A stretch of DNA of 64,000 bases. Source: Phormidesmis sp. GTDB lineage: Bacteria; Cyanobacteriota; Cyanobacteriia; Leptolyngbyales; Leptolyngbyaceae. The position numbers and the translations under genes were made by a program. Position 1 is the first letter of the stretch; the number at the start of each line of letters is the position of its first letter. The DNA is taken from NCBI GenBank assembly GCA_965248535.1, contig CBDFJR010000002.1, positions 96,001-160,000 on the forward strand, read 5' to 3'. This document shows positions 50,170 through 64,000 of this stretch, piece by piece. Below the pieces are notes generated by a model. That model was given only the letters and a program-made list of their open reading frames with translations. It was not told the origin of the DNA and ran no database searches.

Positions 50170-50240
<71 letters not shown>

Positions 50241-58241: not shown

Positions 58242-60161
58242 TCACTCCATTCGGGCAAAATGCTCTAGTAGCATCCGATGGACAAAGATATAACCGCCGC
58301 CAACTTTTTGCAGAAAAATGCGCTCACTGGCGTAGTCGAGGAAGCGGGAATAGTCCCAGGGAATACAATTGTTGCGGTGAAGGATGGATCGTAAGATGAA
58401 GTGTTGGAGGCAGGCTTTACCACCTCCAAAAAACAGCCCAAAGATCAGTCCGAAAATTAGCCCCAGTCCCAGCCATTGTAGTTGCCCTAGAAAAATTACA
58501 ATCAGCAAGCCAATTCCTGCGCCTATCATTCCTAAAATAAGGGCGTTTCTAACTGAGTTCCAAATTCCTTGATTAGGAGATGTTTTTCTCTCTATTTTTG
58601 GGCCGATCAGTCCACCTAGCAAGCCCAAAATTAGTCCACTAATTAGCCCATACGCGATTATTAAGATAGGCATGAGTGGTGATAAAAGAGAAATTCCCAC
58701 AATTATTCCCAAAGGCAATCCTCCAAGGAATCCTTGTTTCGCAGACTTTATGGCTTCTTGCCAAGACCATTTCAAGCTTTCATCTTGCCAAGACCATTTC
58801 AACGTTTCAACTGTTTTGATTTCATCCATCCGCCAAGCTAATTTCCATTCCTCCATCTTCCACCAAGCTAAAGGTAGGACGATACTCATTCCAATGATTA
58901 GTCCCTGTAATGGACTCAATACAAAACAACCAATCAGGAAACCCATCATTAACCCCATCAGGCGAGTTCCCCATTCATAGACCTTTTTTTGGGTCGTTTC
59001 TAACCAAGTCGGCTGCATTCCCTCAATAAAAAAGACCGTTTGCGATGCGTGAGACATCCGTTGCGCTAGCCAAGTTAGCCAGTGTATGGACTGACCCTTC
59101 GAGTATTGTTGATTAACTCCCTTTCGCTTGAACATCCGCTCAATATAAGAATTGAATAAGTGTTCACGATGTGCTTCTACTGAACCTGTTTGAAGTATTT
59201 CTTCTACCTTTTTGCCTTGATAAGCCAAAGTCATAACATTAAGCGTTAGAGGAGACTTCGCTAACTCTTGCAGTGCGGTATCTTCGGACAGCAGAGTTTT
59301 GACGGCTTCTAGTTGTTCACCTGCCGCGTCTAAATAGTGGTTAACCTGCTCAGGAGTCAGAGAGCGGATGTAGATCGCGCCCCGTAATTGCAGACGGTTA
59401 GACAGAACTTCATAGTCTGCAATCCGACTACAGACCACTATCTCAGTCTGCCCGTGCGTTTGCATAAACTGGTTGATAGCTTCGACGCAGGCTTCTCGCC
59501 GATCGGACTTTACCTCGTCTAGACCGTCTAGCAGTAGGAGTAGTTGTTGATCTTCAATCCAGGTTTTAGCAAGAGTCTTGGAAACTTTATACTGACTGTA
59601 CAGTTCCTCAATCAGCCAATCTGCGATCGTTTGCCGTTTGCTGCCCCAAGAAGATAAGTTAAACACCACTGGACTCAGCCGACTCAAACCCCCTTCAGCA
59701 CGAGCAATCAAATTCTGTGCCAGTTTTAGGAGGGTTATTGTTTTCCCAGCCCCTGGGTCTCCCAAAATCAACAGAGTTCGCCCCTCTCCGATTTGATTGA
59801 AGACCTCAGTTGCGCCTGTCCCTGAAGGCAAAATTTGTCTGGACTCTTCTGGTAGCTCCTCGAAGCTACTAAATGAACGTTCTATTGCATCCGATCGCTT
59901 TTCTAGACCAAGTTCAATCATTGTCTTGGTGTGCAATGACTTTTCTAAGACCCCTTCAATCCAATAATCTTTGACTTTACTGAGTAAAACTTGCCTCTGG
60001 CGGTATTCTACCTGAGTTAAAGATTGTTCTGCACTGGGTGATTGCCCACTAATTAACTCAGAGACTTGGGAAATGAAGTATTGAGTGACGGCTCCATGAT
60101 TTTCTTGGATAAACCCCTGAACATTTCCGCCAGAGATGTTGACAAAATTATCGGCAGTCAT
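58242..60161 (-). CDS. NACHT NTPase with C-terminal transmembrane region and N-terminal amyloid-like motif
   Basis: Walker A GDPGAGKT, Walker B LLLLLDGLDE, CSR, PL.L, Gly-rich TM helices, C-terminal FLQKVGGGYIFVH. Confidence 0.9.
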   Translation of the reverse strand: MTADNFVNISGGNVQGFIQENHGAVTQYFISQVSELISGQSPSAEQSLTQVEYRQRQVLLSKVKDYWIEGVLEKSLHTKTMIELGLEKRSDAIERSFSSFEELPEESRQILPSGTGATEVFNQIGEGRTLLILGDPGAGKTITLLKLAQNLIARAEGGLSRLSPVVFNLSSWGSKRQTIADWLIEELYSQYKVSKTLAKTWIEDQQLLLLLDGLDEVKSDRREACVEAINQFMQTHGQTEIVVCSRIADYEVLSNRLQLRGAIYIRSLTPEQVNHYLDAAGEQLEAVKTLLSEDTALQELAKSPLTLNVMTLAYQGKKVEEILQTGSVEAHREHLFNSYIERMFKRKGVNQQYSKGQSIHWLTWLAQRMSHASQTVFFIEGMQPTWLETTQKKVYEWGTRLMGLMMGFLIGCFVLSPLQGLIIGMSIVLPLAWWKMEEWKLAWRMDEIKTVETLKWSWQDESLKWSWQEAIKSAKQGFLGGLPLGIIVGISLLSPLMPILIIAYGLISGLILGLLGGLIGPKIERKTSPNQGIWNSVRNALILGMIGAGIGLLIVIFLGQLQWLGLGLIFGLIFGLFFGGGKACLQHFILRSILHRNNCIPWDYSRFLDYASERIFLQKVGGGYIFVHRMLLEHFARME

Positions 60162-60178
60162 TTTCTAAGCGCCCTTGA

Positions 60179-60556
60179 TTAACTGAAGTTTTGAGTTATC
60201 GTCCCAGTATTTTGCTGTGTCAAACCTTGAACTGTACCCCCAGAAATTTGAACACTAAATTTCCCTTCCGCTGCTTCTTGAGGATGTAGTTGTTCCATTA
60301 ACTTTTGAGCCAGTTTAACAATTTCTTCGTCTTTGTCAGCTCCAGCCTCAGTTAATTCATCTTCTAAAAGAGGTCTCGTCTTTTCGGGCTTCTGTTCATA
60401 CTTATCCAGGATAGTAGCTGAATCTGATTTTCCTTGACTCTCAAACTTGTGCTTAATCAAGGCTTTCAAGCCGTTGTAAGCATCTTGAGCGACACCACCA
60501 GCCGTTTTTGCTGCACCAGCTACCAATGCTGCAAGGATAAGAGAAATAGGATCCAT
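60179..60556 (-). CDS. Bell-like helical protein with C-terminal amyloid-signalling-like motif
   Basis: N-terminal MDPISLILAALVAGA, AY..LK..I..KF helix, C-terminal G/Q/N/T-rich tail matching the NACHT N-terminus; RBS AGGAG. Confidence 0.75.
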   Translation of the reverse strand: MDPISLILAALVAGAAKTAGGVAQDAYNGLKALIKHKFESQGKSDSATILDKYEQKPEKTRPLLEDELTEAGADKDEEIVKLAQKLMEQLHPQEAAEGKFSVQISGGTVQGLTQQNTGTITQNFS

Positions 60557-60774
60557 AAATTCATCTCCTGAGGTTTAAGTTTTGAGTCAAACCATCTGTT
60601 GCGTTTAAGATAGGACAGGAAAAGAGATAACACTGGAAAGACGCAGATATCGTGATGTTTCTTGATAAACAGATTTGAGTATCAGTGCGATCGCTTTAAC
60701 CAAGAGCTTACGGGGTTTTGGCGATTTCTTCCTACCGATCTCTTCCCGATTGCAGCCTCATCAAGGATTCAGGG

Positions 60775-61560
60775 GCATAACGGCTCAAATCAGCGGCGGC
60801 AGACAATTTCTGTGACTCCACCGAGACCTCGCGCCCTTCCGCTCCAACGTGTTGTGTACGCCCAGCATGGGTGTGAACTAATGGGGTGAAAGTCCCCTGT
60901 CGGAGAACCAACGTCCAAATGATCCCAAAAGATCCGAGTGACGACAACGACTAGCTTAAGGTAAGGGCGTTTCCGCGAGGAAGGGTCTGAAGGAAGCCAG
61001 CGGCAAATCTGCGAGCTGACGGACAGAAACGTCATAGAAGGCTGAGATTCCTGTGGCAAGTGAGCACAACATCATGAAGCCTTTTGGTTCAGGGAACACA
61101 GTAAATGACGCAGTTGTGCAGAGACAGTTCACGTTCTTATCTGGGGAGATCTGCTCAAAGGGCGGTCTGAGGGTCTACGGGAGTCTGATTGAGGTCTAGC
61201 GGGAAACGGCTAGGGAGCCACGGAACCCTAAGGACATTCAGGCAGCGTGAGTCATGGCAACAGGACTCATGATTGAGCAGAAGTCAGCAGAGGTCATAGT
61301 AGCCAAACACTCACCGTAATGGGTGAGACAGGGTGAAGGGCTGAACCTTAGAAAGCAGGGAGGAGTTGCAAAGCTCGACTGGGCGATGAACCCGAACGGG
61401 GGAGCTATTTTGTCGGCGCTTAACTGCACAACCAGCCCTGGATATTCAGTTCTATTGAACTGGCTTGTCTAAAACTTTTCTGGGGACGCGCCCCGTGCGG
61501 AGCCGCACGCGGGGTGCCGTGGGGACTGGGGGAGAAAATCCCCTGGTTACCCGATTATGC
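60775..61560 (-). other. attC-like recombination site interrupted by a group II intron (86 bp once the intron is removed)
   Basis: On + strand: GCATAAC ggctc aaatCAGCGG...CCGCT...TGTTGT|intron|TATGC; lies 4 bp after the dprA-like stop. Confidence 0.8.
60856..61555 (+). mobile_element. ORF-less group IIC (attC-targeting) intron
   Basis: 5' GTACGCCCAGCATGG; GAGCAGAAGTCAGCAGAGGTCATAGTA; short DV with CGC triad (CGCCCCGTGCGGAGCCGCACGCGGGGTG); DVI with bulged A; ends CCCGAT. Confidence 0.88.
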
Positions 61561-61564
61561 TGTT

Positions 61565-62557
61565 CTACGATGATGCAATAAGACTGAGTTGAACCATCTG
61601 ATTATCTAGAGCCTTGTTCTCATTTACAGAATCACTCCTCTCTAAAATTGAAGTGATTTTTTGAACACCATTTTCCAATGAGATCTCGTGACAGCCTAGT
61701 TGAATTAAGTCCGAATTACCAATTGGGGGTTGTGCCAAGCAGTTTGGTGAGAGAACAAAAACTGGTATGTTCATCGCCATTGCACTTCTAGCAGCATCAA
61801 ACGTGCCACTCATCCTGCCTTTACTATCAATTTCTTGTCCTGAAGCTATAACAACAACTGCATCTGCCAGCGCACAAACCAACTTATTTCGTGCCATAGC
61901 ATTTCGAGCAAGCCACTTTTCTGAAGGGTTGAATTGCGAAAGAACAAGAGTGTTATACGCAGTAAAAAAGGGTTTGAATTCCTTCTTGGCTTCAAAATTT
62001 AGAATGCCTAGACTAAGAATAATCGTAGTAGTACCTTCTGCTTCTAAAGCGCCTAAATGAGCGGCAGAATCAACACCTTTAGCATAACCAGAGACAATAT
62101 TAAACCCTGCTCTAGCTAGTCCCTTTGCTAACTCAGCTGTGATGGCAAGAGCATCTTCACCAACGTTACGCGAACCAACAATTGAAATGCTTGGTGATTT
62201 TGCAAGTGGTGTATGCCCTCTTGCGTACAAGACTGGGGGAATGTTGTATTGCCGCCCATACTTCTTCAGTCTAGAGGGAAAGTCAGGAGATTCAGGATGC
62301 AGAATCTTCACTCTATTTGTCTCTAGCTGTTCGTAAGCGCGTTGAATCAATTCGTAATCCTGTTCATGCGGAAAGGATTTGAGTGTAGTTCTCAGTCTTC
62401 CTGAGATTTTTGGAAAATCTAATTTCCTATTAGTTAGGAAATTGTTAAGATCGGTAGATTCTCCAGATACGAGATCGTGAACTTCCCACAGCAATTTCGT
62501 CCCTATTCCTTTGGCGCGAGCCAACCGAAACCAATCGAAACTGCTGCTGTAAGTCAT
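61565..62557 (-). CDS. DprA/Smf-like protein (ShosA-like)
   Basis: PPVLYARG, SIVGSR, VSGYAKGVD..AH, ARNKLV..LA; ATG 62557 overlaps the PRTase TGA (ATGA). Confidence 0.85.
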   Translation of the reverse strand: MTYSSSFDWFRLARAKGIGTKLLWEVHDLVSGESTDLNNFLTNRKLDFPKISGRLRTTLKSFPHEQDYELIQRAYEQLETNRVKILHPESPDFPSRLKKYGRQYNIPPVLYARGHTPLAKSPSISIVGSRNVGEDALAITAELAKGLARAGFNIVSGYAKGVDSAAHLGALEAEGTTTIILSLGILNFEAKKEFKPFFTAYNTLVLSQFNPSEKWLARNAMARNKLVCALADAVVVIASGQEIDSKGRMSGTFDAARSAMAMNIPVFVLSPNCLAQPPIGNSDLIQLGCHEISLENGVQKITSILERSDSVNENKALDNQMVQLSLIASS

Positions 62558-63177
62558 CTTTTTGTCCTCGTCATCGTTATCGTTAGCACGTAGACTCTCG
62601 CTACACCCCCCTGGAACGTGAGAGCATTGCACACTGCGTTCAAGGTTTCCCCAGACCTAAAGAGATCGTCAAACACCAAAAGAGACTGCTGAGCGTATCT
62701 TTGGTCAGCGACCTGAAACGCACCTTGCATTTGTTGCTGGCGAATTTCAGCGTCTTCTATATCTTTCAGCGCTTGTGTCTGTCTAACCTTGATGAGGTAA
62801 TCGTCTGGTACAGAAAGCCCAGTCTTCTCCCCGATCGCTTTCGCTAATTCTAACACTGGCTGAAAAGGGCGGTCTAATTTGGATGGTGGAACAGCGACGA
62901 TGCTTTGGAAGTAGCGAAAAACCCTAAAATTATTCCGGATATAATTTGCAGCAATCTCAGCCATTGGCTCGACTTTGCTACGGTCAAAATTATACTTTAG
63001 CTGATAGAGAGCTTCACCCAGTTCAGTACGGGTTGTATCAAACCCTCCATCACTCCGAGAAACGCTCGACACTGTATGTAGATCAAGTGCTACTCCATAA
63101 ATCCACGAACCATTAATAACTCTTGGGTCAATATTCACGGTCGAAGCCCGCCCTATCCCGTCTTGTGAAGCTCTCAT
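62554..63177 (-). CDS. ComF-like phosphoribosyltransferase (ShosT-like)
   Basis: LYQLKY, VPPS...R.FQP, PRPP loop LVFDDLFRSGETL. Confidence 0.85.
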   Translation of the reverse strand: MRASQDGIGRASTVNIDPRVINGSWIYGVALDLHTVSSVSRSDGGFDTTRTELGEALYQLKYNFDRSKVEPMAEIAANYIRNNFRVFRYFQSIVAVPPSKLDRPFQPVLELAKAIGEKTGLSVPDDYLIKVRQTQALKDIEDAEIRQQQMQGAFQVADQRYAQQSLLVFDDLFRSGETLNAVCNALTFQGGVARVYVLTITMTRTKR

Positions 63178-63242
63178 TTTATCTTGTGTGACTATACCTG
63201 ATTACCAGGCCTAGATTGCCCACAAAATAAAGCGAATGTGCA

Positions 63243-63328
63243 GCCTAACGTTCCCAATCAGCGGCGACAGATATGACTGAAACGAAGTGCAAAGACTTTT
63301 TACGTCCGCTGCATTGGGGTTGTTATGC
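63243..63328 (-). other. Intact attC-like site (86 bp)
   Basis: Top strand GCATAAC-AACCC-CAATGCAGCGGACG...TCGCCGCTGATTG-GGAAC-GTTAGGC, with two extrahelical bases; 4 bp after the upstream stop. Confidence 0.85.
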
Positions 63329-63332
63329 CGCG

Positions 63333-64000
63333 CTATGGACACGAACTGTTTTTGCCATTAATAGTCCACGTATCGTTAGCGATCCAACCTGTTCGTCCTC
63401 CAGATGTAATTTCAAAATAGCCTTCTGTAGAACCCGCAAATTCTCTTGTCACGTAATCCGAGACCGTATAATTGCCAGAGCTTACCCTGATAAGCTCTTG
63501 ACTGAATCTGTCTGGGGCACTTCTTAAGGAAACCAAAGAATTATTAATTGCTACAACACATCCTGACGAAGCAATAGCTTGCCTCCTAGCTACTTCTGCC
63601 CGTTGACGCGCAAGCTCCTGTTGCCGTGCAAGTTCTTGCTGACGTGCAGCCTCTGCTTGCTGACGTGCAAATTCTCTCTGCCGTTCAGCCTCTTCCTGAG
63701 CAGCACGTTGTCTTGCAGCCTCTTCCTGAGCAGCACGTTGTCTTGCAGCCTCTTCCTGGGCAGCGCGTTGCCGTTCAGCTTCTTCTTGGGCGGCACGTTG
63801 TCTTGCAGCCCCTTGCTCGTCAGTGTTTGAGTTAGGGGGTACAGATGGCTTATTACCTGAACTTGATGGTAGTTGCGGCGAGACAACGGTGTTAGGCTTG
63901 CTAGGCTCTCCAACTTCGCCACCAACAGCTTTAGCAAATTTTAGAGCTTTAGTGTCAGAAATAAAACTTGCGACTAGGACTGCCTTCTCACCTGTTTGCC
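63333..64000 (-). CDS. 5'-truncated protein: Pro/Ser linker, coiled-coil repeats, C-terminal SH3b-like domain
   Basis: The frame of the 63333..63536 ORF stays open to the window edge (QTGEKAVLV...AARQRAAQEE x4...LRSAP...GRTGWI). Confidence 0.7.
   Translation of the reverse strand, partial: QTGEKAVLVASFISDTKALKFAKAVGGEVGEPSKPNTVVSPQLPSSSGNKPSVPPNSNTDEQGAARQRAAQEEAERQRAAQEEAARQRAAQEEAARQRAAQEEAERQREFARQQAEAARQQELARQQELARQRAEVARRQAIASSGCVVAINNSLVSLRSAPDRFSQELIRVSSGNYTVSDYVTREFAGSTEGYFEITSGGRTGWIANDTWTINGKNSSCP
63690..63809 (-). repeat. Coding 30-bp tandem repeat (four units of AARQRAAQEE / AERQRAAQEE)
   Basis: Unit CTCTTCCTGAGCAGCACGTTGTCTTGCAGC repeated with few substitutions. Confidence 0.85.

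Follow-up and report, generated by a model that had tools for sequence, protein, structure and literature searches.

An ORF-less group II intron of the IIC-attC type in an integron of the cyanobacterium Phormidesmis sp., and its copies at other attC sites

A 64,000-nt stretch of the chromosome of the cyanobacterium Phormidesmis sp. (GenBank assembly GCA_965248535.1, contig CBDFJR010000002.1, positions 96,001 to 160,000 of the forward strand; hereafter the window) was analysed around a 700-nt element at 60856-61555 (+), which begins with GUACG, ends with AU and splits an attC recombination site of an integron. Rfam matches and identical copies elsewhere in the genome confirmed the element, as far as sequence comparison can establish this, as a complete group II intron without a reverse transcriptase (RT) gene. 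We consider it likely to be a non-autonomous member, lacking an open reading frame (ORF), of the group IIC-attC intron lineage, which would have spread with RT supplied in trans. Positions given without a contig are those of the window; positions in the rest of the genome (G000) carry the contig name.

Identity, boundaries and insertion site of the intron

When the whole window was scanned with Rfam models, RF02001 (D1D4-3) matched 60969-61135 with 127.8 bits and RF01998 (D1D4-1) matched 61246-61341 with 63.7 bits. RF00029, the model of domains V and VI (DV/DVI), matched 61486-61555 with 43.5 bits (gathering score 40) when a 1.2-kb region was scanned alone, and was absent from the whole-window scan at gathering thresholds. 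Its last model position falls on 61555, the proposed 3' end of the intron. An initial annotation had called 60856-61555 a group II intron and proposed an Infernal-type model comparison as a check; the three matches within these limits, DV/DVI among them, bear that assignment out.

On the + strand the junctions read ...CCAACGTGTTGT/GTACGCCCAGCATGGG...GGTTACCCGAT/TATGCTG, where the slashes stand at 60855/60856 and 61555/61556; in its longer form, the 5' exon stretch directly before 60856 is CCGCTCCAACGTGTTGT. The boundary is ambiguous by one base, a T being found both before the intron and at its end, and the choice of G...AU was taken from the Rfam alignment. A 5' boundary two bases upstream, giving GUGUA, was rejected because excision would then not restore the TTGTTATGC of an empty site. 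In silico removal of the 700 bases yielded GTTGT+TATGC, as in the intact attC and as the initial annotation had claimed.

The 3' AU fits the expected AY, and the 5' GUACG departs from GUGYG; the start of an 85% identical copy is GUCCG. The departure had been flagged earlier, and the reading of the bases stands, but the same starting bases are found in an RT-bearing relative in the genome and in a class 1 integron IIC-attC intron. Because the latter, a known intron, starts with the same 16 bases, GUACG is by this comparison a trait of the attC lineage and no lesion.

At E <= 1e-3, 28 sites of the genome matched an attC profile (nhmmer) built from 18 sites, occupied ones included as seeds; divergent attC sites would escape this count. 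Only two matches lie within the window. One is the 5' part of the split site in bottom-strand reading (60774-60855, +; E 6.9e-15), with GCATAAC at 60775-60781, followed by AGCGGCGGCAGA...TTCCGCTCCAACGTGTTGT, and the intron-binding site 1 (IBS1), TTGT, at 60852-60855. After the intron follows the remainder of the R'' box (TATGC..., 61556-61562, +), of which the first T is IBS3. The other match is an empty, uninterrupted neighbouring attC (63240-63328, +; E 1.6e-17) of the same build, ending in GGGGTTGTTATGC. Since the profile finds just these two sites, the array has no detectable attC beyond the one that holds the intron. The GCATAAC...GTTATGC cores each agree with six of seven consensus positions.

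The intron thus stands between TTGT and TATGC of the attC. It runs antisense to the cassette genes and shares its strand with the integrase gene intI. The latter (G000:C2:161487-162425, +) lies 1.5 kb past the end of the window and is a 359-aa open frame scoring 467.9 bits on TIGR02249 (cut-off 265); a second intI is found at C2:1131581-1132513. The minus strand carries the cassette genes, which diverge from intI as cassettes should. For introns of the IIC-attC type, the insertion point is described as TTGT/T within R'' on the bottom strand of attC, with the intron facing against cassette transcription (PMC7923331, PMC3001079), and most integron introns are described as sitting in the last cassette (PMC3001079). 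Insertion at TTGT/T in the R'' end of the bottom strand, antisense to the cassettes, had been claimed from the first reading and was found again here.

One known intron of this type, located after catB3 in the class 1 integron of plasmid NZ_CP031121.1 (L061), is 1,926 nt long and shares its strand with intI1, opposite in sense to the cassettes. Preceded by AATTGT, it starts with GTACGCCCAGCATGGG, and it ends with CTACCCGAT/TAGAC. Its first 16 bases (GUACGCCCAGCAUGGG) are identical to those of the window intron, both end in ...ACCCGAU and carry a CGC triad, and the two align at 68% over window intron positions 1-510 and at 79% over 634-700. With S.ma.I2-type introns and this plasmid intron the window intron shares the TTGT/T target in R'', the antisense orientation, the intI strand and the position in the attC of the last cassette. 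It differs from the plasmid intron in having no RT/maturase gene, in a Domain IV of 140 nt rather than about 1.4 kb, and in being present in multiple copies on a cyanobacterial chromosome instead of on a proteobacterial resistance plasmid. The RT of the full-length cyanobacterial relative is ~52% identical to the plasmid intron RT. The homology to the class 1 integron intron at the RNA level, together with target and orientation, supports placement with the IIC-attC lineage.

Copies in the genome, relatives and consensus fold

Six copies, that of the window included, were 100% identical over all 700 nt, an identity that could partly reflect gene conversion. One further copy (C2:609290) was 99% identical, with a damaged 5' end, a body shorter by 10 nt and a degraded attC, and the 85% identical copy (C5:1939398) sits at ATGT/T. 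The RT-bearing relative (C2:1673018-1675015) measures 1,998 nt, is 75-79% identical over the first 447-549 nt and is likewise inserted in an attC, at TTGT/TATGC. All nine full copies follow attC-like sequence, with variation among the copies in attC bodies and outer flanks. Seven of the nine insertions have the junction TTGT/T, and the first base 3' of the intron is T in every case. Eight of the 28 attC profile matches directly precede an intron 5' end and are therefore occupied. At one such site (G000:C2:1136864) the flanks CATTGGGGTTGT/.../TATGC match the empty site of the window.

The differing flanks, the fixed junction and the zero divergence point to recent independent insertions rather than to a duplicated DNA segment. 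On this pattern of identical copies in attC bodies and flanks that differ right up to the junction, the element is one that spread recently and not a lone decaying copy. The near-identical ORF-less copies that the initial annotation had proposed to look for are thus present (six identical, one 99%, one 85%). A 130-nt fragment (C2:378132-378261, -), 88% identical to intron positions 443-572, was observed ~0.9 kb from an empty attC (C2:377170-377254) and may be what is left of a copy that decayed.

Spread as DNA, without retromobility, whether driven by the integrase, by homologous recombination from one attC site to another or by gene conversion, would suit copies that sit in substrates of the integron integrase (IntI) in a genome with two intI genes and no working RT. 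We nevertheless regard it as very unlikely. IntI crosses over in the R' box, at the end of the attC opposite to the intron junction. The attC sequences and outer flanks diverge from each other up to the junction itself, and the loop of exon-binding site 1 (EBS1) is complementary to the 4-5 bases preceding each insertion. The TTGT/T junction at the R'' end is, in addition, the IBS1/IBS3 site of IIC-attC introns (PMC7923331).

ORF-less relatives, full-length or nearly so and 74-87% identical, were found in five other genomes (G007, G010, G014, G015 and G047, the last of another family), with at least nine ORF-less copies in G010, a complete genome. Among the copies inspected, one each from G007, G014, G015 and G047 and two from G010, those with a 5' junction follow attC-like hairpins at NNGT/T. 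Some match was obtained in 22 of the 61 genomes searched, G000 counted. A search for the Domain IV segment that characterises the ORF-less form turned it up in G000 and G144 among 401 genomes, 400 of them drawn evenly from the phylum; two candidates were scored per genome, and these counts are lower bounds.

Two further observations concern the relatives. The ORF-less copy of a congeneric genome (L053, G007:C509; 8-2869, -) is split between DV and DVI by an RT-bearing group II intron of another type (about 45-2203), an apparent twintron. Contigs of ice metatranscriptomes (X9, X12, X13) contain attC-plus-intron sequence at 90-99% identity to 60782-61580; relatives of the element thus occur in cold-habitat communities, as RNA or as DNA carry-over, both being possible.

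For the consensus fold, seven ORF-less members from five genera were aligned. The fold comprised 204 pairs, with 97.1% of cells paired. Compensatory changes were present in 50 of the 204 pairs, compared with 24.6 +/- 3.2 in shuffles and 6-14 with slid partners, although the structure was derived from the same seven sequences in which the pairs were counted, which favours it somewhat. Because compensatory changes preserve the fold in different genera, the RNA is taken to be under selection for a working form; the ORF-less form is, on the same comparison, old.

All six domains were mapped, Domain III from an Rfam alignment and the others on this fold, which agrees with the earlier statement that the ribozyme is largely retained. 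Domain I (60861-61145, +; consensus fold and column mapping) holds the AGGAA motif in an unpaired stretch (60991-60995, +; AGGAAG invariant in 7/7 members) and the EBS1 loop ACAAC (61066-61070, +), of which ACAA(C), the partner of (G)UUGU in the 5' exon, is invariant in 7/7 members. The predicted Domain II (61146-61285, +) is branched and, at 140 nt, unusually large, with compensatory changes in 16 pairs of helices 14-18. Domain III (about 61292-61341, +) contains a CAUAGUA...GAAGG internal loop and corresponds to the 3' hairpin of the RF01998 match, from which alignment its coordinates were read. Domain IV (61346-61485, +) is 140 nt long, contains no RT gene and has a stem with compensatory changes in helices 21, 23, 27 and 29. 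In Domain V (61488-61517, +; 30 nt) CGC replaces the AGC triad, the intron CGC lying beneath the model AGC in the RF00029 alignment, and the distal stem is 2 bp shorter than the Rfam consensus, visible as a 4-nt gap; two of its pairs show compensatory changes. In Domain VI (61521-61552, +; four such pairs) the bulged A is 61549, at a distance of 7 nt from the intron 3' end.

The hallmarks given for class IIC are a CGC triad, a DV distal stem shorter by 2 bp, an AGGAA motif, a short IBS1-EBS1 pairing and an upstream hairpin in place of IBS2 (PMC1702495). Each was found in the window intron, where the EBS1 ACAAC-IBS1 (G)UUGU pairing amounts to 4-5 bp and the hairpin upstream of the insertion site is that of the attC, in line with the class IIC assignment made initially. 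The terminator-targeting B.h.I1 (PMC1702495) is alike in its CGC, DV stem, AGGAA, 3-5 bp IBS1-EBS1 and hairpin for IBS2. In contrast to introns of the B.h.I1 type, the window intron targets an attC hairpin, starts with GUACG instead of GUGYG, has a 140-nt Domain II and no ORF, and measures ~560 nt without Domain IV, which is larger than the 'abbreviated' IIC ribozyme. Because the plasmid IIC-attC intron aligns through the same region, the non-abbreviated ribozyme is, by this alignment, a trait of the attC lineage.

The earlier claim of a Domain IV of about 150 nt without an RT ORF agrees with the measured length and with the absence of any + strand ORF of at least 50 aa inside the intron. Three minus-strand ORFs within the intron and one overlapping + strand ORF had no Pfam match. 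Domain IV keeps a ribosome-binding-like site, GGGAGGAG, and a 28-codon remnant ORF (61386-61472) beginning MNPNGG..., the start of which resembles the RT of full-length relatives in its second-Met region (MNPDGGDG / MNPEGGDG). A remnant of the RT C-terminus was not demonstrable in a profile search against RT-bearing relatives: convincing alignment was confined to DV-DVI and to the 5' part with the ribosome-binding site and the first codons. All 7 ORF-less members are collinear through Domain IV. An ancestor would have shed nearly all of the RT/maturase gene from Domain IV, keeping its ribozyme entire together with the ribosome-binding site and the opening codons of the ORF.

Mobilisation in trans and the helper reverse transcriptase

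Under the proposed mechanism the intron would be transcribed on the + strand, and its RNA would fold and be spliced with a class C RT/maturase acting in trans. The resulting ribonucleoprotein would reverse-splice into single-stranded attC bottom strands, recognised by the attC hairpin, by the 4-5 bp between EBS1 (ACAAC) and IBS1 ((G)UUGU) and by one EBS3-IBS3 pair with the following T, and the inserted RNA would then be copied to DNA. The model for such trans mobilisation is offered, by analogy, by the TeI3 introns of Thermosynechococcus elongatus, which are ORF-less and mobilised by 'driver' intron-encoded proteins (IEPs) (PMC2882425). The likeness extends to a cyanobacterial host, a single ancestral deletion of the Domain IV ORF, a remnant of the ORF start and ORF-less copies that outnumber ORF-bearing ones (PMC2882425). 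TeI3 introns are, however, chloroplast-like (IIB), with ordinary base-paired homing sites and intact, tested helper IEPs (PMC2882425), whereas the window intron is of class IIC, targets integron attC hairpins and resides in a genome without an intact helper.

The candidate helper is encoded by the RT-bearing relative. Its RT is of the class C type (best solved relative GsI-IIC RT, E 7.3e-98), and the two gene fragments align to residues 1-123 and 120-444 of an intact orthologue in another genome (G035). Both RT halves are well conserved and YVDD is present in one fragment; recent loss of the RT would fit, because the halves have kept this conservation. This now-broken class C RT may have been the helper. 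Where the initial annotation had proposed to look for a full-length RT-encoding parent, the genome holds this RT-bearing relative, at 75-79% identity and with a broken RT gene.

Several results weigh against mobilisation in trans and are gathered here. The class C RT gene is disrupted by a partial tandem duplication that shifts the frame twice, and no other group II RT was found in the 99.76%-complete genome by TIGR04416, RVT_1 and GIIM searches. Since the only group II RT gene of the genome is disrupted, it holds no intact helper now, and the copies are probably stranded at present. The ribozyme of the helper candidate is 75-79% identical to the ORF-less copies, a divergence that leaves cognate recognition uncertain. 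RTs of the lineage are also split, stop-containing or fragmentary in the five other genomes with ORF-less copies, although draft assemblies may hide intact copies; both near-complete genomes examined carry the helper RT lineage in broken form. No promoter was detected on the + strand upstream of the intron by a simple sigma-70 scan of 60100-61700, and no contig joining 60855 to 61556 was present among the contigs of four runs. Of EBS1 and EBS3, which the initial annotation had proposed to locate on the folded domains, EBS3 was not found. The possible part of gene conversion in the identity of the copies and the derivation of the fold from the sequences on which it was scored belong on the same side.

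With regard to transcription, the simple promoter and terminator scan of 60100-61700 gave one minus-strand promoter-like site, outside the intron, and nothing in it would account for transcription of the intron or for outward promoter activity. The RNA-library contigs (X9, X12, X13) carry none of the unique flanks of the window locus and are uninformative on the expression or splicing of this copy; in run X1 the contigs break at the repeat.

The same evidence would suit dead relics, immobile leftovers of full-length introns that merely interrupt attC sites, a reading which we hold to be improbable. The genome has no intact group II RT, the C2:609290 copy is damaged and the fragment at C2:378132-378261 is but 130 nt long, no contig carries a spliced joint and no promoter-like site lies upstream. 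Relics would, however, hardly be represented by six identical 700-nt copies at six different attC sites. The ORF-less architecture recurs in other genera with 50 compensated pairs, which indicates selection on a working RNA, and independent ORF losses would not yield a collinear Domain IV. Of the two alternatives left by the initial annotation, a non-autonomous element mobilised in trans is consequently favoured, and a decaying copy is disfavoured by the identical copies and the conserved fold.

Other RT and intron sequences were noted during these searches. A further RVT_1 gene, apart from the class C RT locus, is of the retron type; it encodes 373 aa (G000:C2:2381100-2382221; L013:1315-2436), and its best PADLOC matches (RT-Protease_XI, RT-TIR_XII, RT-Toprim) cover the RT part only. 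An extra DV/DVI match of 45.9 bits (G000:C5:1439336-1439412, +), outside the family of the window intron, hints at one more group II intron in this genome, in which there is no further group II RT gene. In G010 a distance of 8 kb separates the two pieces of the class C RT (C1:2201624-2201944 and 2209994-2211016), which has an in-frame TGA, and one ORF-less copy (C1:2212091) lies right beside this broken RT.

Integron context, cassette genes and implications

Between the two attC sites of the window lies a two-gene cassette with overlapping ORFs (61565-63177, -). It encodes a DprA-like antitoxin (PsyrA/ShosA) of 355 aa (61565-62632, -; Pfam DNA_processg_A, E 1.2e-40) and a phosphoribosyltransferase (PRTase)-like toxin (PsyrT/ShosT) of 207 aa (62554-63177, -), the latter identified with PADLOC and showing weak ComF/GntX matches. 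PADLOC E-values were 5.5e-53 for PsyrA, 2.4e-35 for ShosA, 1.3e-16 for PsyrT and 4e-05 for ShosT. By these matches the cassette is a PsyrTA/ShosTA-like anti-phage toxin-antitoxin system.

The intact attC at 63240-63328 forms a DNA hairpin of -14.8 kcal/mol (z -2.6) and folds on either strand. After removal of the intron, the 90 nt of the split attC fold into a single hairpin (-11.2 kcal/mol) whose base, the 10-bp R box, is the GCATAACGGC/GTTGTTATGC helix. With the intron in place, the attC 5' part alone folds no better than shuffles, and in the fold of the whole 790-nt DNA strand the two R-box halves are still paired. Splitting of the R box would weaken IntI recombination at this attC, as a likely side effect of the insertion, and a weakened attC would fix the PRTase/DprA-like toxin-antitoxin cassette in place. 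Such a lock is plausible but uncertain, because the 790-nt DNA fold still pairs the R-box halves.

The element could also have been kept for a benefit to host or integron, either as a cassette lock or as a donor of outward promoters as in S.ma.I2, but we give this reading hardly any credence. It would be suggested by the split R box of the last detectable attC beside a defence-type toxin-antitoxin cassette and by the outward promoters reported in IIC-attC introns, S.ma.I2 (PMC3001079). Against this, no promoter-like site was detected inside the intron on either strand by a sigma-70 consensus scan, the lock is itself uncertain given the whole-strand DNA fold, and multi-copy spread independent of flanks is the pattern of a selfish element.

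Other features of the window are side observations. Just beyond the last attC, a gene for a NACHT/STAND-type NTPase of 639 aa (58242-60161, -; Pfam NACHT 5.5e-10, weak PADLOC matches) and a 125-aa ORF without family match (60179-60556, -) were found, after which the attC profile detected no attC. The first cassette ORF (63333-63998, -) runs past the window and contains near-identical tandem DNA repeats (~63600-63800) encoding an alanine/glutamine/glutamate/arginine-rich repeat; an SH3_3 match was sub-threshold only. A tRNA gene (50170-50240, -; Rfam 66.5 bits) has the anticodon GCA and is read as Cys from the alignment.

ORF-less group II introns of bacteria are described as rare and short-lived, with a related IEP present alongside them in nearly every case (PMC4424553), and IIC-attC introns have been known as elements of resistance integrons that carry an RT. 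Full-text searches, from which most subscription journals were absent, turned up no report of IIC-attC introns lacking an ORF, or of such introns within integrons of cyanobacteria. The family is well supported and presents no new principle; it would represent an IIC-attC form that is stripped down, multi-copy and retained in several genera, with no working helper RT in the genome. Its small compact ribozyme with a DNA-hairpin target could be of practical interest.

More tentatively, and in a reading that we hold to be less likely than not, ORF-less IIC-attC introns could be long-lived integron hyperparasites, comparable to short interspersed elements (SINEs), which spread across cyanobacterial genera, outlast their helper RT and freeze cassettes into fixed genes. 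If this were true, the occupation of roughly a third of the recognisable attC sites would progressively turn mobile cassettes into fixed chromosomal genes, of which the anti-phage toxin-antitoxin cassette in the window would be one example. The finding raises the questions of how non-autonomous introns find a helper, whether an intron in the R box disables cassette excision, and whether such insertions help to explain sedentary chromosomal integrons and integrase-less attC clusters. On this tentative view, intron insertions would help to turn mobile integrons into sedentary arrays and into clusters of attC sites lacking integrases (CALINs).

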